18,003 bases of DNA from IMG/VR virus record IMGVR_UViG_3300021279_000020; one strand, 5' to 3'. The translations under genes were made by a program, and so were the position numbers. Below, piece after piece: positions 1 through 14,180 of the stretch (positions within the stretch are counted from its first letter, which is position 1; every line of letters starts with the position of its first letter). Under the pieces are notes generated by a model, which made no database searches, had not been told where the DNA came from, and saw only the letters and a program-made list of their open reading frames with translations. The stretch is from a virus. Its lineage: Duplodnaviria > Heunggongvirae > Uroviricota > Caudoviricetes.

Positions 1-905
1 AAATACGTCGTGTCCCCGCATATCCAGGGAACACCGCCAGCAGAGCCACCAACGCACTGGCCTGCCATATCCGTCAGGTCTGCACGGAATTTATCAACCA
101 GCGCACCAAACTGTGCTGCGTGATTTCCGGGCGTGCCGCCAAAATCAAATTCCCCCTGCATCCACACCACGGCAAACAGCACATTTTTCGGGTTCTTCTT
201 CAGTGCTGCTTTTGTTCGACCGATAAGGTCCTTATACAGCGGCTTGTCCACACCCCAGCGGGTTGAATTCTCCGAGGCACCACTCGCATCACTGTATGTG
301 CCATCGGCTCCGGTGGTGAACGCAGAGCCACCGCGGCAGCAAGGTACCAGCAGAATGCCCGCATTCGCCGGTATAAACGGCAGCAGTTTTTTGGCGATAT
401 GCAGCCCCTGCCCCACGGTTCCGTACTGCCCCTTTGACAGATCCGCTTTCGGATGGTTAAGGCGGCTCATGTCCTGCACATCATGCAGACAATGGTCCGC
501 CGGAATGATGTCGTTATATCTGCATGCTGCACCACCCGGTGTCACCGTACTGCGACGCGCCAGTTGCTTAATACGCGGCTCCGGACGGTCATATGTCTCC
601 GGCAGCGGAAGACCTTCACCATACGACATGCCGTTTGACTGCCCTGCCAGAACCACAACAAAGTAATACTCCGGGTCGCTGGTGGCACTGATTACTGCAC
701 CTTCTCCACCTGTCGGCTTCACCACAACAGGTGTGCTCACATCACCTTCTGCGACAATCGCCTGAATAAGTGCTGCGCCATCATCCGTATACGAAGAAAA
801 CGGCCCACCGTATGGTTGCCATCCTTCACGAATTTTTTGCGCAAGTGCATCAGCAAGGTCTGACGGCGATGCCGCCCTGACCACATCGTAATGTTTAAAT
901 GTCAT
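1..905 (-). CDS. nanS: Prophage NanS-p-like sialate O-acetylesterase (N-terminal DUF1737-like extension plus SGNH/DUF303 esterase domain); start ATG at 905..903, 3' end runs past the window start
   Basis: Hand translation of the minus strand from 905 gives MTFKHYDVVRAASPSDLADALAQKIREGW...YYFVVVLAGQSNGMSYGEGLPLPETYDRPEPRIKQLAR...LLVPCCRGGSAFT...VWMQGEFD. The GQSN, CCRGGSAF and WMQGEFD blocks match my recollection of E. coli NanS/YjhS. RBS GGGAGG sits 4 nt upstream. The ORF is absent from the track because it has no stop inside the window. Confidence 0.85.
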   Translation of the reverse strand, partial: MTFKHYDVVRAASPSDLADALAQKIREGWQPYGGPFSSYTDDGAALIQAIVAEGDVSTPVVVKPTGGEGAVISATSDPEYYFVVVLAGQSNGMSYGEGLPLPETYDRPEPRIKQLARRSTVTPGGAACRYNDIIPADHCLHDVQDMSRLNHPKADLSKGQYGTVGQGLHIAKKLLPFIPANAGILLVPCCRGGSAFTTGADGTYSDASGASENSTRWGVDKPLYKDLIGRTKAALKKNPKNVLFAVVWMQGEFDFGGTPGNHAAQFGALVDKFRADLTDMAGQCVGGSAGGVPWICGDTTY

Positions 906-1099
906 GAATCCTCCCGGCCGGGATAGTGTACTGAATCAGATAAAGAGCGGGCTGAAGTCCGGAAGTTACAGGACAATGGCAGAAGGGAGACTTACAGCCC
1001 GCAATTCGAAAAAGGCCGCGCAGTTGCGCAGAGTGATTACCATGGGGTATTATTCGCCAGCTGAAATATTACTTCACGTTTTGTTGTTTATTCCTTGCC

Positions 1100-1128
1100 G
1101 CCCGCGTCTCCCAGCGCGGGCTTTTTTT
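1100..1128 (+). terminator. Rho-independent terminator-like hairpin (CCCGCG / CGCGGG stem, 8-nt loop, then CTTTTTTT)
   Basis: Inverted repeat 1101-1106 / 1115-1120 followed by a T-run at 1122-1128 on the plus strand. Confidence 0.45.
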
Positions 1129-1133
1129 GCCCA

Positions 1134-1160
1134 TAAAAAAAGCCCCTCCGGAGAGGGGCT
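1134..1160 (-). terminator. Rho-independent terminator (8-bp stem AGCCCCTC/GAGGGGCT, 4-nt loop, then U7 on the minus strand)
   Basis: Plus strand shows AAAAAAA then AGCCCCTCCGGAGAGGGGCT; on the minus strand this is hairpin followed by TTTTTTT. It lies downstream of the TerB / small-peptide pair. Confidence 0.6.
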
Positions 1161-1403
1161 GACGCTGCGTATCTGTATCATCATGCGCATGGTGCCGGGT
1201 GCCTCCCGGTGAGTTCAGTATCAGCACCTGAACCCGCACAGAAAGGATAAGGGATGTAACCAAACACCTGTCGCTGATATGCCCCTCCGCACAGGGGGAT
1301 TCACCATGCAGGATTTTTTTAACAAATTCTCAGTCGGGCAGACAACTGTCAACCGTCTGAATTGTGAGACATTTAAAATTTTCGGGGCATGACTGATACC
1401 CGG

Positions 1404-1568
1404 CTAACTACCTGGCATGTCCTTTTTAACCAAAGGAAAAAGCACCACCACAATGCCGACCACCAGCACTCCATCCGCCAGCACCGACATGATCCTGCTG
1501 GTGAAATCCACCATCACCACCAGAAACAGCAGGAGTGCCACAGCGGCCAGACGCAGTTTTACCGTCAC
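1404..1568 (-). CDS. Small hydrophobic protein, 54 aa, two predicted TM helices (VTVKLRLAAVALLLFLVVMVDFTSRIMSVLADGVLVVGIVVVLFPLVKKDMPGS); GTG start overlapping the TerB stop (GTGA)
   Basis: Hand translation of the minus strand. RBS GGAGAA lies 6 nt upstream of GTG at 1568..1566. The stop TAG is at 1406..1404. It is below the 60-aa cutoff of the ORF track. Two hydrophobic stretches are visible. Confidence 0.5.
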   Translation of the reverse strand: MTVKLRLAAVALLLFLVVMVDFTSRIMSVLADGVLVVGIVVVLFPLVKKDMPGS

Positions 1569-1996
1569 AGGTGGTTCTCCAGTCGCAGGCCAAGAACACC
1601 AGCAATCTCTTCCAGAACCTTACGCTCTTCCGGCTCAATTTCACCATCTGCTTCAGCAATGGCCACCGCCACATCCAGCACATCTTCCGCTTCACGCGTA
1701 TCGTGTTTCACATCTTCAATTTCACGCAACGCCGATCGACGACCAATTTTAAAGTTGGTGTCAAGCTGACCTGTGATCGTGGCACTGATGGCATTAATTT
1801 CTGACGTAAACGCGGACAACGCAGGCTGGTTACGCAAGACCTGCTCGATCTTCGCTTTCTCTGAAGCCTCACATTCACCATCTGCATAGGCTACCAGGTA
1901 GGCAGCATTAATAACCGCCTGTGCCAGATCGCGTTTCTCAAACTTTTTAATTTCCGCTGCCGCTCTGCGGGTTTTCTTTTTGAAAATACCAAACAT
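1565..1996 (-). CDS. TerB-domain (tellurite-resistance TerB family) protein, 143 aa; start at ATG 1996 (internal Met of the 167-aa track ORF)
   Basis: Track ORF 1565..2068. RBS AGGAA lies 9 nt upstream of ATG 1996. Two ADG-containing acidic helical repeats (LVAYADGECEASEKAKIEQVL and AIAEADGEIEPEERKVLEEIAGVLGL) are typical of the TerB fold. Confidence 0.8.
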   Translation of the reverse strand: MFGIFKKKTRRAAAEIKKFEKRDLAQAVINAAYLVAYADGECEASEKAKIEQVLRNQPALSAFTSEINAISATITGQLDTNFKIGRRSALREIEDVKHDTREAEDVLDVAVAIAEADGEIEPEERKVLEEIAGVLGLRLENHL

Positions 1997-2128
1997 CGTG
2001 ACGTTCCTTTGGGTGGGTGAGCCAACGCCCGGGAGCGATCTGCCCACAGAGAAAGTCACACTGACCACTCCGTAAGCTCACCCCCGAAAGGCTCTGTGGT
2101 TGATATGCGCCGGGCGTGGCGCGGATAC

Positions 2129-2152
2129 AAAAAAGGCCCGCAAAAGCGAGCC
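2129..2152 (-). terminator. Terminator-like hairpin plus U-tract immediately 3' of the tRNA cluster (GGCUCGC uuuu GCGGGCC UUUUUU on the minus strand)
   Basis: Plus strand shows an A-run at 2129-2134 then GGCCCGCAAAAGCGAGCC; the stem has one G-U pair. Confidence 0.45.
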
Positions 2153-2165
2153 TGGTAAATAAATA

Positions 2166-2242
2166 TGGCGCGTTGTACTGGATTCGAACCAATGACCGAT
2201 TGCTTAGAAGGCAATTGCTCTGTCCGGCTGAGCTAACAACGC
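2166..2242 (-). tRNA. tRNA-Arg (anticodon UCU), 77 nt
   Basis: Reverse complement folds as a canonical cloverleaf: acceptor GCGTTGT/ACAACGC, D-arm GCTC..GAGC, anticodon stem ATTGC/GCAAT with loop CTTCTAA, T-loop GGTTCGAATCC, discriminator G and encoded CCA. Confidence 0.9.
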
Positions 2243-2255
2243 AGTGTACCGATAA

Positions 2256-2332
2256 TGGACCGCCATCGAGGACTCGACCCCCGCGCAACCAGCTTCGAAG
2301 GCTGGCGCTCTGTCCCGATGAGCTAATGGCGG
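2256..2332 (-). tRNA. tRNA-Arg-like (anticodon UCG), 77 nt, non-canonical features (C1:G72 acceptor pair, T-loop GUCGAGU)
   Basis: Reverse complement: acceptor CCGCCAT/ATGGCGG, D-arm GCTC..GAGC, anticodon stem CCAGC/GCTGG with loop CTTCGAA, T-stem CGGGG/CCTCG, encoded CCA. Confidence 0.7.
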
Positions 2333-2341
2333 TATGTGATA

Positions 2342-2417
2342 TGGTGGCCCTTGCTGGATTTGAACCAGCGACCTGGCGATTATGAGTCGCTCGCTCTCAC
2401 CACTGAGCTAAAGGGCC
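2342..2417 (-). tRNA. tRNA with CAU anticodon, most similar in my recollection to tRNA-Ile2 (ileX-like, lysidine-modified), 76 nt
   Basis: Reverse complement GGCCCTTTAGCTCAGTGGTGAGAGCGAGCGACTCATAATCGCCAGGTCGCTGGTTCAAATCCAGCAAGGGCCACCA gives a complete cloverleaf with anticodon loop CTCATAA. Confidence 0.88.
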
Positions 2418-2457
2418 GGGCGCAGGATAATAACGGTACGTAACTAATCCTGCAATA

Positions 2458-3516
2458 TCATCCGTTCTGACTGACTAAATCCTGAACTTCCCTGACCGTC
2501 TGCTCAAAACGTTCAGTCTCCAGCTCAACGCCAGTTGCACGACGTCCCAGCGCCATCGCTGCTTTGACTGTCGAACCCGACCCCATGAAAAAATCTGCAA
2601 CCAGGTCACCCGGACGACTGCTCGCGCTGATTATCTGCTGCAGCATTTCTGCTGGTTTTTCGCACGGATGTTTCCCGGGATAGTACTGCACCGGTTTATG
2701 CGTCCACACATCGGTGTACGGAACCTGCGCCGTCACGCCAAAATACCGCCGCAGATACTTATATTCACTCTGCAGTTCCGCATACTGCCGGTTCAGTTCA
2801 CTGTATGTGCTGACCAGTTGGTGATGTAGCTTTTCCAGTTCTCCGCGCTGATGCTTCTCTTCTGCCACCCGGGCAAACAGCGCCTGTAATTTCAGATAAT
2901 CGCTTTCGTCCGGTAGCTGCCACTGGCTGGCACTGAACCAGTGCGACACCATGTTTTTCTTTCCTGTGGCATCAGCAATCTGTTTTGCCGTTATCCCCAG
3001 GGCAGCACGTGCATCACGAAAGTAAGAAATCAGCGGGGCCATCACATGCTGTTTCAGTGCCCTGCCCTTCGCCTCATACCCGGCATCTTTCGGGCGATAC
3101 GGCCCCTGATAATGTTCCGCGAACAGAATGCGCTCTGTGGCGGGGAAATACGCCCGCAGGCTTTCCTTGTTGCACCCGTTCCAGCGTCCGGACGGCTTCG
3201 CCCAGATAATATGGTTCAGCACACTGAAGCGTTCACGCATCATGATTTCAATGTCAGACGCCAGGCGATGACCACAGAACAGGTAAAGACTTCCGGCAGG
3301 TTTCAGCACCCGCCAGAACTGCGCAAGACACTGGTCCAGCCATTTCAGGTAATCCTCATCCCCCGTCCACTGGTTATCCCAGCCCTCGGGCTTCACTTTA
3401 AAGTATGGCGGGTCTGTGACTATCAGATCGACAGAGTTTTCCGGTAAGGTCTGGATAAATTCCAGGCAATCAGCGTTGATTAGCTCACAACTGGATATTT
3501 TTACAGTATTAGCCAT
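2458..3516 (-). CDS. Orphan DNA methyltransferase (beta-class N6-adenine/N4-cytosine type), 352 aa
   Basis: Track ORF with ATG at 3516. Motif IV LIVTDPPY is near the N-terminus and the AdoMet motif FFMGSGST near the C-terminus. No adjacent endonuclease candidate. Confidence 0.9.
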   Translation of the reverse strand: MANTVKISSCELINADCLEFIQTLPENSVDLIVTDPPYFKVKPEGWDNQWTGDEDYLKWLDQCLAQFWRVLKPAGSLYLFCGHRLASDIEIMMRERFSVLNHIIWAKPSGRWNGCNKESLRAYFPATERILFAEHYQGPYRPKDAGYEAKGRALKQHVMAPLISYFRDARAALGITAKQIADATGKKNMVSHWFSASQWQLPDESDYLKLQALFARVAEEKHQRGELEKLHHQLVSTYSELNRQYAELQSEYKYLRRYFGVTAQVPYTDVWTHKPVQYYPGKHPCEKPAEMLQQIISASSRPGDLVADFFMGSGSTVKAAMALGRRATGVELETERFEQTVREVQDLVSQNG

Positions 3517-3652
3517 AGATCAATAAGCACTTCTCTGATAGGCTCATTCTGCTTTTGCGCAAAGCAGTGGGCCTGAGGTTTGCTTGTGATCCGGACGCAT
3601 GAGCAGATGGCTGGTGAGTGCCCCTAACACCCACCAGCCGCCCATTTACCAC

Positions 3653-3680
3653 AAATAAAAAAGCCTTCAGGACTGAAGGC
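3653..3680 (-). terminator. Rho-independent terminator (GCCTTC stem, then UUUUUUAUUU on the minus strand) overlapping the stop of the 65-aa ORF
   Basis: Plus strand AAAAAAGCCTTCAGGACTGAAGGC; on the minus strand this is hairpin followed by a T-run. Confidence 0.55.
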
Positions 3681-3864
3681 GTCTGTAACAACCGAACTGA
3701 TAGTCTGCCAGACCCGCCATAACAAGCTGGGTCAGTATTAACTGACAGCGTTCGCGTGAAAGGTACGTATTCTGTGCAATCTCCCCGACTGTCGCCGGTT
3801 CGGTGACGCTTAATTCATTAAACACCACTCTGGCGGTTTCTGTCATATCCTGCTGTTTCAGCAT
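3667..3864 (-). CDS. Small protein, 65 aa, possible winged-helix/HTH fold (MLKQQDMTETARVVFNELSVTEPATVGEIAQNTYLSRERCQLILTQLVMAGLADYQFGCYRRLQS)
   Basis: Internal ATG at 3864 of track ORF 3667..3987, with SD AAGGGG 7 nt upstream. Bracketed by two terminators. Confidence 0.5.
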   Translation of the reverse strand: MLKQQDMTETARVVFNELSVTEPATVGEIAQNTYLSRERCQLILTQLVMAGLADYQFGCYRRLQS

Positions 3865-3987
3865 GTCTTTTCCCCTTTTCCGGTTAACGTGACACACCAA
3901 TAACTCTTGTCGAAAAAGCCAGCAAGCTGAAAGAACGGTATTAATAACCACCAGCGAATTTATTGCGCTGCTGTATATTACGGACAC

Positions 3988-4008
3988 AAAAAAACCACCT
4001 TCCGGTGG
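3988..4008 (-). terminator. Rho-independent terminator (CCACC GGAA GGUGG then U7 on the minus strand), about 75 nt downstream of the Q-position gene
   Basis: Plus strand AAAAAAACCACCTTCCGGTGG. Confidence 0.55.
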
Positions 4009-4080
4009 CTTCCTTGTGCGAAAAAACTTGCGTTTCGCCTCGCGATACAGCCTTGCGAAGCTTATACGGATTGAAGCAGT

Positions 4081-4653
4081 TTATTGATCAGTTTGCAACA
4101 TTTTTTTCTCTGTAACAAAAGCCATACGCATGGGGGCATGTAACATAAATTCAGATATCCCCAACCACTGATCAATTCGGCGTCTGCACGTAACCAACGT
4201 CCACTCAGGATGATCTGCATTTAACCTTTCGGCCATTTTCAGTTTGCTCATTCCCCGTCCTTCGTACCTTTGCCGGAGAATATTGATTAGTCCGGGATAT
4301 TCCCCAAGCACCTCACTGATAACGCGATCAATAATCAACGCCTCTGTGTCTGTACAATGTGACAACCAGCTCTTCTGCTTCCCTCTGGTCATATCCCGAA
4401 AAAATGCCTCAAGTTCCGGTTTATCCAGCCCGGATTTCTTCATTCTGCGTAAAACTTCATTAACTGCTGTTTTCGTCAGCTTTTTCGAAACCAGTAACCG
4501 GTTAAACATATTTCCGGATTTACCCCCACCGATATACGACCACCGCCCCCACATCCGTAATTTCCCCTGGATCCAGACTGCTTCCAGCGTGTTCAGGCGT
4601 AAATGTTCGCCGCTTTTGCCTGTAATTTCCGGATATATCATATTTACGCTCAC
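4081..4653 (-). CDS. Putative late-gene antiterminator (Q-like by position, possibly QuuQ-type), 190 aa; GTG start overlapping the rusA stop (alternative ATG at 4641)
   Basis: Track ORF. It sits directly downstream of rusA and upstream of terminators, tRNAs and late-region cargo, which is the canonical Q position. I see no homology to lambda Q and no zinc-finger cysteines, so the family assignment is positional. Confidence 0.5.
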   Translation of the reverse strand: MSVNMIYPEITGKSGEHLRLNTLEAVWIQGKLRMWGRWSYIGGGKSGNMFNRLLVSKKLTKTAVNEVLRRMKKSGLDKPELEAFFRDMTRGKQKSWLSHCTDTEALIIDRVISEVLGEYPGLINILRQRYEGRGMSKLKMAERLNADHPEWTLVTCRRRIDQWLGISEFMLHAPMRMAFVTEKKMLQTDQ

Positions 4654-5009
4654 TCACTCTCAATTTTGTAAATCTTCACACCCAGCCGACCACCAGGAAC
4701 AAGCTGACCACGTACAATATTGATTTCATCAAACTGCTCGTCATCAATGAGCACTCCCGCATGCGTCAGCGCATCCAGCGGTGCTTTCAGAATGTTGTCC
4801 AGGTCACGACGACGCTTATCCGGTGGCTCTGCAATAATTTTTATTGCCAGCCGTCCGGACAGGCTTAATTTCAGCCGCTGCTGGCGAACAATAAGCGCCA
4901 CTGCACGGCGATAACGCTCCCCGGCTTTTGATACAAAATATGTGCTGCCACGGCGTCGCCAGTAAGTGTTCACCGTCGGCGGGTAAGGTAAAACCAAATC
5001 TATGAGCAT
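4650..5009 (-). CDS. rusA: RusA Holliday-junction resolvase, 119 aa
   Basis: Track ORF with ATG 5009 and SD AAGAGGTGA. The N-terminus MLIDLVLPYPPTVNTYWRRRG and the later DxDN-containing region match the RusA family pattern. Confidence 0.88.
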   Translation of the reverse strand: MLIDLVLPYPPTVNTYWRRRGSTYFVSKAGERYRRAVALIVRQQRLKLSLSGRLAIKIIAEPPDKRRRDLDNILKAPLDALTHAGVLIDDEQFDEINIVRGQLVPGGRLGVKIYKIESE

Positions 5010-13690: not shown

Positions 13691-14180
13691 TTAGCACCAG
13701 TAAAAACAGGTTGCCACTGGTTAATTTACCCTGAAAAGTCAGGGCATAACACGAAAGCGCACGGCGAAGTTCGTATATCTGTACGGCGTCGTTAAATTTT
13801 CTTCGACCGTGCACTTCCGGTTGTGGCAATCCGCGAAATGGCGCGGCGGTAAGTATGGCTGGGGTTTCCTCCATTGCTCCAGAAAATGCACCGGGTTGTC
13901 AGGTTGACCATACGCTTAAGTGACAGCCCCGCCACAATACCCATGTGTAGTCTTTGGTGGCATCAGTTCTACTCCGTGACTGCTCTGCCACCCTTTTTAA
14001 AGTGAATTTTGTGATGCGGTGAATGCGGCTATGCGCACGCGGAACAGTTAAAACCGTAAAGTGGTCTTTTACGGGGCGTAACGGGCATACTTCTGTATTC
14101 CGGCGTTAATTGTTAACTGGTTAACGTCACCTGGAGGCACCAGGCACCACATCACAAAATTCATTGTTGAGGACGCGATA

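Follow-up and report, generated by a model that had tools for sequence, protein, structure and literature searches.

TerB domains have been without a mechanism since the 1990s, and they recur in operons for resistance to tellurite, colicins and phages, in DjlA, and in the defence systems Shango, Bunzi and Dionysus. A TerB gene with a small partner is also known from phage P1, whose tciA-tciB(-tciC) genes were reportedly annotated by Lobocka et al. in 2004. Here we analysed an 18,003-nucleotide (nt) stretch of DNA from a tailed phage (Caudoviricetes; IMG/VR record IMGVR_UViG_3300021279_000020), called the window below, in which an earlier reading (the original prediction) had singled out a TerB-domain gene and a coupled small membrane-protein gene. 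Coordinates given without a locus number (L003 and the like) are positions within the window, and the module and the features of the slot that holds it are all on the minus strand. The locus is the lambdoid-prophage form of the P1 tciA-tciB module (tciAB), with the following two genes:

1565..1996 (minus): tciA, ATG at 1996-1994 and TGA at 1567-1565; TerB-family protein of 143 amino acids (aa)
1404..1568 (minus): tciB, GTG at 1568-1566 and TAG at 1406-1404; DUF3927 membrane micro-protein of 54 aa

The locus is real and was correctly described, and as a gene pair it is ordinary. TciA matches the Pfam TerB family (PF05099) over residues 26-138 with 61.7 bits (cut-off 24.4; E 1e-16), which confirms the TerB fold announced by the original prediction, and the two-helix membrane micro-protein that it had placed next to TciA is borne out by a match of TciB to DUF3927 (PF13064; 59.5 bits, cut-off 25; E 3e-16) and by a hydropathy profile with two hydrophobic segments. 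The proposed translational coupling is equally in place: the tciA stop and the tciB start overlap as GTGA at 1568-1565, with a GGAG 8 nt ahead of the GTG. Since both products match curated families and the identical 54-aa protein occurs on at least 998 contigs, the pair of open reading frames (ORFs) stands well beyond chance.

The original prediction did not recognise the pair as a known system, and here it has to be corrected, because the family already has names. TciA is 42% identical to P1 TciA over 143 aa (E 8e-34) and TciB 48% identical to P1 TciB; the two proteins belong to PHROG 632 ('tellurite resistance'; E 1.6e-69) and PHROG 1470 ('TciB-like'), respectively, and PGAP annotates them in hundreds of E. 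coli genomes as 'tellurite resistance TerB family protein' and 'DUF3927 family protein'. In phage JLK-2012, genes annotated tciA and tciB occupy the same slot, with a different Q and different transfer RNAs (tRNAs). Of 5,426 complete E. coli genomes, 707 (~13%) contain at least 80% of the 1,361-nt locus, the best one being 96.6% identical across it. With its P1 homologues, its two PHROGs and this wealth of annotated copies, the pair is not a new system but an already known, annotated phage gene family whose function is only inferred by homology. Two points are new: the coupling of TerB to DUF3927 across phage types, and a structured leader ahead of tciA.

The likeness to P1 extends beyond the homology of the proteins to gene order and strand, to starts and stops that abut or overlap, and to the surroundings, for both loci adjoin phage tRNA genes and lie downstream of a DNA methyltransferase gene. 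P1 differs by the presence of TciC (35 aa), by the lack of a structured leader, and by control through the C1-repressed ban operon, in place of the Q-dependent late operon presumed here. The P1 TciC (locus L004, 25823-25930) is a peptide with a single transmembrane (TM) segment; the window has no TciC homologue, with only ~30 nt between the tciB stop and the flank formed by an STnc100 small RNA (sRNA), and TciC, which is absent from most other carriers too, was not treated as defining. The neighbourhood of phage tRNA genes is found in lambdoid phages, in P1 (L004, 24349-26009) and in the Machinavirus jumbo phages (L005/L006). We rejected an obligatory tRNA linkage: a same-strand tRNA lies at most 400 nt upstream in only 61 of 107 loci.

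The relation to ter operons (terZABCDEF) is a more distant one (E 8e-8 to Klebsiella pneumoniae TerB, PDB 2JXU). The domain family, the all-alpha fold and the duplicated acidic motifs are shared, whereas the module in the window has no terC/D/E/Z nearby, a polybasic N-terminus in its TerB protein and, instead of TerC, a 54-aa hairpin as partner. A TerB domain is combined with membrane-embedded partners also in the defence proteins SngA of Shango, BnzA of Bunzi and DinB of Dionysus (the last accompanied by the pore-forming DinC); TerB is reported to be membrane-associated in these systems, and a 'membrane surveillance' role has been proposed. In contrast to them, tciAB is encoded by phages, lytic ones included, and has no helicase, ATPase, MAEBL or 4-TM toxin partner. 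A search of PADLOC-DB v2, which includes Shango and Bunzi, returned for TciA only PDC-S48 (E 0.0024 over 35 residues) and for TciB nothing, and no helicase, ATPase or toxin gene is adjacent. The same comparison bears on an anti-defence decoy, in which a phage TerB held by TciB would mimic or heteromerise with host TerB sensors (Ter, Shango, Bunzi, Dionysus) and so blind membrane surveillance. Validated defence systems require their TerB proteins, a homodimer is predicted for DinB, jumbo phages are among the targets of Dionysus, and a decoy would make sense of lytic and jumbo carriers, which gain nothing by protecting a lysogen; yet the PADLOC TerB models are not significantly similar to TciA, and most carriers are prophages of E. 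coli, whose hosts have no known dependence on such systems. We regard the decoy as unlikely.

The first of the two new points concerns how widely the coupled pair is kept. Full-length TciA-like proteins are present in 131 phage records, and the carriers comprise phage-plasmids of the P1/P7/D6/SJ46 type, Klebsiella phages, N4-like Schitoviridae, Machinavirus jumbo phages and phages of Pseudomonas, Vibrio, Pantoea and Sinorhizobium. Searching ORFs with hidden Markov models, we found a DUF3927 ORF after TerB, overlapping it or separated by at most 5 nt, in 11 of the 17 loci inspected: E. coli, JLK-2012, P1, two Machinavirus jumbo phages, the N4-like Pollock and FSL SP-076, pJN2-26, Pantoea LIET2, Klebsiella 5 LV-2017 and Pseudomonas Nican01. 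The tciB homologues of the last two phages (51 aa at L010, 2923-3078, and 60 aa at L015, 2435-2617) are unannotated. Among close IMG/VR loci tciB is intact in 76 of 80, with one copy cut by a contig end and three frameshifted or truncated, and it is kept in 8 of 9 loci of other species, from Franconibacter, Pantoea, Pseudescherichia, Enterobacter pulveris and Buttiauxella; in these five other enterobacterial genera too the start and the stop overlap or lie within 5 nt of each other. Compared with diverged alleles (synonymous divergence dS 0.5-2.7), the ratio of non-synonymous to synonymous substitution rates (dN/dS) is 0.17-0.33 for tciB and 0.02-0.06 for tciA, so that tciB is under purifying selection. 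The original prediction had left open whether the small ORF is conserved and whether the two genes co-occur across phages: this dN/dS, and the company that tciB keeps with TerB in many unrelated phages, answer both questions in its favour.

A profile search of the whole library with DUF3927 gave only 114 clusters at 50% identity, nearly all of 19-90 aa. Natural TerB-DUF3927 fusions, which would have been Rosetta-stone evidence, were discarded, the longer matches being frameshift or chimeric artefacts; an AlphaFold2 (AF2) model of one frameshift fusion (P0124), made with no alignment, was unusable, with a predicted local distance difference test score (pLDDT) of 41.9. A tblastn search of phages with the 54-aa TciB gave no matches, probably through low-complexity masking. 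Other membrane partners of TerB were also seen. In Pseudomonas phages AF (L007, 2433-2654) and Zuri (L014, 2443-2646), TerB is coupled to a different single-TM protein of 67-73 aa with a conserved C-terminal domain, whose gene in AF has the same GTGA overlap with TerB and which forms an alternative membrane partner family. The N4-like Vibrio phage BUCT194 (L016, 424-2426) has a TerB-TerC/Alx-TerB cluster, which ties this TerB clade to a TerC-type membrane protein.

Carriage of the pair by N4-like and jumbo phages, which are strictly lytic and never lysogenise, argues against a role confined to the lysogen, and the breadth of the coupling together with the purifying selection on tciB points to a role in lytic development, not to lysogenic conversion or a prophage-only abortive infection. 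This bears directly on the view of the original prediction, which saw a likeness to a stress, abortive-infection or membrane-effector pair. Put in concrete terms, this would be a toxin-antitoxin or abortive-infection pair in which TciB would damage the membrane, be held in check by TciA and be freed on infection to kill the cell. The tight two-gene architecture with a small hydrophobic peptide, the prophage cargo slot and the presence of TerB proteins in defence systems with pore-forming effectors would all fit such a pair. They are offset by its conservation in strictly lytic phages, where suicide is self-defeating, by its position behind terminators in a late operon with no promoter found, by the lack of any significant PADLOC-DB v2 match and, circumstantially, by 5'-truncated, leaderless tciA alleles that coexist with an intact tciB; we consider the idea quite unlikely. 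These truncated alleles, of 120 aa, are common (cluster P0163 with 284 members; L229, 2501-3027, and L230, 1281-1807). In L229, two overlapping ORFs on the opposite strand just upstream of the truncated tciA may be an insertion sequence element.

The anatomy of the two proteins suggests where they would act. The AF2 model of TciA, built with 22 sequences, has a pLDDT of 87.8, a predicted template-modelling score (pTM) of 0.82 and six helices. Its best fold match in the PDB is 2h5n (PG1108), which we take to be TerB-like, with a Foldseek probability of 1.0 and a template-modelling score of 0.53-0.61, the E value of 0.015 making this a weak match. TciA is a soluble, acidic TerB bundle with a charged asymmetry: residues 1-22 carry a net charge of +7 and the remainder of -13, and the N-terminus (MFGIFKKKTRR...) has a head, MFG.FKKK, that is conserved across the family. 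This basic N-terminus may form a membrane-binding helix. The two ADGxxxxxE motifs (A38-D39-G40...E46 and A116-D117-G118...E124) are near-invariant, with D39 and G40 at least 90% conserved and E46, A114 and E124 invariant; such duplicated acidic motifs are the predicted metal site of the TerB family. In TciB, the hydrophobic segments span residues ~7-20 and 33-47, conservation is highest in the linker DFTSRIMSVLADG, the residues P45 and K48 never vary, D21 and D32 are conserved, and basic residues stand at both ends (K4 and R6; K48 and K49), from which an N-in/C-in hairpin is predicted. A membrane site for the pair is thus suggested by the hydropathy of TciB and by the charge distribution and conserved head of TciA, and also by the single-TM partners in AF and Zuri, by the TerB-TerC-TerB cluster of BUCT194 and by the reported membrane association of TerB elsewhere.

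The second new point is the RNA between the last tRNA and tciA. The features of this leader are the following:

1997..2123 (minus): structured tciA leader RNA of about 125 nt, supported by conservation and covariation
2122-2118/2111-2107 (minus): helix P0, with loop 2117-2112
2099-2092/2051-2044 (minus): helix P1, CCACAGAG / CTCTGTGG, the inverted repeat of the original prediction
2083-2076/2022-2015 (minus): helix P2, GGGTGAGC/GCTCACCC
about 2070-2065/2038-2033 (minus): helix P3
2116-2112/2030-2026 (minus): pseudoknot of the P0 loop (CGCCC) with GGGCG
about 2010-2005 (minus): Shine-Dalgarno (SD) sequence AAAGGA

The long inverted repeat that had been noticed is therefore present, but as helix P1 of a larger conserved leader and not as a structure of the pair standing by itself. 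The leader is 73-100% identical at the nucleotide level among E. coli prophages, a Klebsiella phage with a P1-like TciA allele, five other enterobacterial genera and Machinavirus jumbo phages. Pairing was counted on 22 distinct leaders, which are closely related (an effective number of 2.3) and from which the structure itself was derived: the paired share over helices P0, P1, P2 and P3 as a set is 89% and falls to 41-50% once the partners are slid, and for the P0-loop pairing the corresponding values are 99% and 13-57%. Double-sided changes occur in 14 pairs of P0-P3 and all five P0 pairs covary; in the P0-loop pairing, one pair changes from C-G to U-A in nine sequences and another appears as C-G, U-A and G-C. 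In total, five pairings have covariation support and two of them are of pseudoknot type. Since P1 and the P0-loop pairing both cross P2/P3, the leader either folds as a double pseudoknot or alternates between structures of similar energy; the two nested sub-folds of E. coli-type leaders reach about -20 and -22 kcal/mol, values that do not distinguish a pseudoknot from a switch. A CCUUUC beside P1 is complementary to the SD.

The element is specific to its gene. A pattern scan of viral contigs found it only ahead of TerB genes, and the covariance model matched only at sites upstream of tciA, with 89.7-162.5 bits; upstream of P1-like, N4-like, Pseudomonas and Vibrio tciA it had no match. Rfam 15 has no family matching the leader, neither in the window nor in the jumbo-phage copy, and gave only terminator-like partial matches at E<=10; a TerB-associated RNA motif was not found in our literature search. 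In its helix order (5'P1-5'P2-3'P1-3'P2), its crossing helices and its position downstream of a tRNA in lambdoid and jumbo phages, the leader resembles double-pseudoknotted RNAs such as riboswitches and the HDV-like (hepatitis delta virus-like) or theta ribozymes that follow phage tRNAs. It differs by the lack of an enclosing P3/L3 or P4 and by an additional P0 hairpin whose loop pairs downstream, and an identity as HDV-like or theta ribozyme is unsupported by the Rfam models. Two other readings of this region were set aside. In jumbo phages the small local hairpin GGTCA-GTG-TGACT (2066-2054) has not been kept, the P3 pairing taking its place; the in-frame upstream GTG at 2068 is not the tciA start, because the leader has indels that are not multiples of three and a poly-G run of variable length, and because the SD ahead of the ATG at 1996 is conserved. 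This G-run, at the 5' side of P2 (2085-2081), varies from 4 to 12 G among the near-identical leaders L036, L082, L141, L199 and L223 (GGGGTGAGC ... GGGGGGGGGGGGAGC), which could be slipped-strand variation or homopolymer sequencing error. It is possible, if doubtful, that the leader belongs to a class of pseudoknotted cis-regulatory RNAs not described before, be it a riboswitch or an element that processes itself, gating a minimal module of TerB and a micro-membrane protein that is deployed at the inner membrane in phages from lambda-like to jumbo.

Leader and acidic motifs together raise a different possibility, ion or metal homeostasis, where TciA would sense a cation through ADGxxxxxE and gate, or partner, an oligomeric TciB with an Asp-lined path, the leader acting as a cation or metabolite riboswitch. 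It draws on the invariance of the duplicated acidic motifs, the conserved D21 and D32 of TciB, the TerC/Alx-type membrane protein adjoining TerB in BUCT194, and a pseudoknotted leader of no known family right next to the SD. We nevertheless find it improbable: metal binding by TerB is a prediction of the literature, a 54-aa hairpin with hydrophobic segments of 14-15 residues is short for a channel, and the leader is absent from the P1-like, N4-like and Pseudomonas versions.

How the pair is transcribed has to be considered together with the slot in which it lies, whose other features are the following:

4081..4653 (minus): Q-like late antiterminator (DUF1133 + Phage_antitermQ), from Pfam and annotation in relatives
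2458..3516 (minus): N6/N4 DNA methyltransferase (Pfam N6_N4_Mtase, 1e-43)
2166..2417 (minus): tRNA-Met/Ile2 (CAT), tRNA-Arg (TCG) and tRNA-Arg (TCT), left flank of the cargo slot
2126..2153 (minus): terminator-like hairpin 2153-2134 and T-run after the last tRNA, common to the Stx2a phage
1129..1338 (minus): STnc100-family sRNA (RF02076; EcOnc27/PasD relatives), right flank of the cargo slot, shared with Stx2 phages
1..905 (minus): 5' part of nanS-p/yjhS, sialate O-acetylesterase-type, annotated DUF1737/DUF6645, running off the window end

The order given by the original prediction (Q-like gene, methyltransferase, three tRNAs, cargo, nanS-p) is as described, and its equation of this slot with that of stx in Shiga-toxin phages holds in an alignment with the Stx2a phage Stx2_EH2201. 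Homology covers 3962..2118, then 1371..1137 and 905..1, with 95% identity over the stretch that begins with the methylase gene and takes in the tRNAs and the hairpin/T-run (2153-2126), up to its end at 2118; as it stops there and resumes at 1371, the exchangeable cargo is 2117-1372, the position which stx2AB fills in Stx2_EH2201. The stxAB cassette, composed of genes unrelated to tciAB, thus sits on the same backbone between the tRNA-proximal terminator and the STnc100 sRNA/nanS-p. The two terminators that had been attributed to the pair are not its own: the upstream one, originally placed at 2129-2152, is also in the Stx2a phage, and the downstream one (1160-1141) is the 3' end of the STnc100 match, an sRNA that likewise follows stx2B. 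This match is full length (1-206) with 147.2 bits against a gathering score of 47, its region is 79.5% identical to the sequence after stx2B, and an sRNA of the EcOnc27/STnc100 type has been described downstream of stx2B (PMC12370729, PMC12711010, bioRxiv 10.64898/2026.05.13.724894). In the window it lies directly after tciB and could be derived from the 3' untranslated region of the tciAB transcript.

At most 3 of the 131 TciA-positive phage records possibly bear an Stx name, and with essentially no Stx-named phages among them the occupancy of the slot by tciAB or stx looks alternative (mutually exclusive). The sequence upstream of stx2A in Stx2_EH2201 (L003, 5322-5386) contains a hairpin resembling P0 (GCGCC-GGGTCT-GGTGC), its SD stands in similar surroundings (CCAAAAGGAAC), and the leader model matches there weakly, with 26.8 bits. 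It looks as if the leader core with tciAB and the stx cassette had replaced each other within this element.

A scan of positions 900-4800 for sigma-70 promoters gave 0 sites, and the best candidate found by hand, TTGTAT-17-CATATC, is poor. An intrinsic-terminator-like hairpin stands ahead of the module in nearly all lambdoid contexts, its sequence being specific to the lineage; in the relatives, hairpins of differing sequence occupy the position of the one at 2153-2126. With terminators upstream and no sigma-70-like site in the scan, the genes are probably transcribed by Q-antiterminated read-through, which the Q-like protein is presumed to drive into the slot. The Q proteins encoded ahead of the pair belong to at least four different families; other genera have the arrangement Q - tciA - tciB - holin - endolysin - spanin, P1 has the pair in the C1-repressed ban operon, and N4-like phages have it among early or middle genes. 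These contexts point to expression of the pair during lytic growth. The late operon may have its tR' at 3680-3663 (minus), where a terminator-like hairpin separates the Q-like gene from that of the methyltransferase.

Lysogenic conversion, with a prophage-expressed pair giving its host resistance to tellurite or colicins, is very unlikely. Homology to the TerB of ter operons, the P1 annotation and the lysogen-benefit cargo that other phages hold in this slot speak for it; set against these are the upstream terminators with no promoter found, the phages that carry the pair and never lysogenise, and the view that TerB alone is insufficient without other ter genes (PMC8421299). An antiholin-like accessory by which the pair would tune holin triggering has, in turn, the attraction of a position directly upstream of holin, endolysin and spanin in several genera and of a TciB of holin-like size with two hydrophobic segments. 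It is hardly credible nonetheless, for the copies of P1, N4-like and jumbo phages are far from lysis genes, TciB has no holin Pfam match, and in the window nanS-p and the sRNA stand between the pair and the lysis genes.

Our favoured reading, a guess of low confidence, is that tciAB encodes a membrane-tethered TerB module shielding the inner membrane of the infected cell. It follows the proposal of Iyer et al. that phage Ter genes counter superinfection (PMC7824862), and the 'membrane surveillance' that TerB is proposed to perform in defence systems. During lytic development tciAB would be transcribed by Q-antiterminated read-through, like stx2; the leader would set the translation of tciA or the stability of the messenger RNA, and tciB would be translated by coupling to tciA. 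TciA would then dock on the inner face of the cytoplasmic membrane via its basic N-terminal helix and TciB, and the pair, as a minimal version of the Ter activity in phage inhibition and resistance to pore-forming colicins (a 'membrane guard'), would protect the inner membrane from further attack up to the moment at which the holin of the phage itself is triggered. The attack might come from genome entry by a superinfecting phage, from colicins or from depolarising abortive-infection effectors. Small inner-membrane superinfection-exclusion proteins made during infection, such as T4 Imm, offer an analogy only, with no sequence relationship to TciB.

Several points weigh against this shielding role. 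The Ter phenotypes of plasmid R478 are attributed to a multi-gene cluster, and terC/D/E/Z are absent among the ORFs of the window and in the annotation of near-identical prophages. The searched literature yielded no functional experiments on TciA or TciB; the other papers found merely record a lone terB in phages, and the P1 name 'tci' itself rests on homology (P1 GenBank notes). Read-through expression is inferred from the sequence, and the leader may contain a weak promoter. A direct contact between TciA and TciB is only presumed, and in an N-in/C-in hairpin the linker of TciB, where its conservation is highest, would lie on the periplasmic side, across the membrane from TciA; moreover, K481, PMBT3 and phiM5 carry TciA without a small membrane partner. 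Finally, a CRISPR interference screen in P1 scored tciA, tciB and tciC as non-essential (PMC10695390), so that any role of the tci genes would be conditional.

The rest of the window is an ordinary lambdoid early region with exonuclease, dicB/DicF, repressors, YdaT, replication genes, hok/sok, DUF968 and RusA. The sok antisense RNA (6816-6667, minus; 104.6 bits) and a hok/mok-type ORF (about 6726-6514, minus) make up a type I toxin-antitoxin system in the same prophage, and the DicF sRNA (13942-13993, plus; 61 bits) lies in the early-left region, close relatives encoding dicB.

The interest of the locus lies in the question of what TerB does, in the range of phage types that carry the coupled module and in the apparently undescribed leader. 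With one soluble TerB protein and one 54-aa membrane hairpin, tciA-tciB is the smallest natural TerB module, and, as it is present in ~13% of complete E. coli genomes and in tractable phages (P1, N4-like), it offers a convenient handle on TerB at the membrane. Since tciAB is an alternative occupant of the Shiga-toxin slot in pathogenic E. coli, its expression logic likely mirrors that of stx. If the leader is confirmed as a cis-regulatory RNA, it would add to E. coli prophages a class absent from Rfam, and if it does gate the module, identifying the signal it reads would reveal the stimulus to which TerB domains respond.

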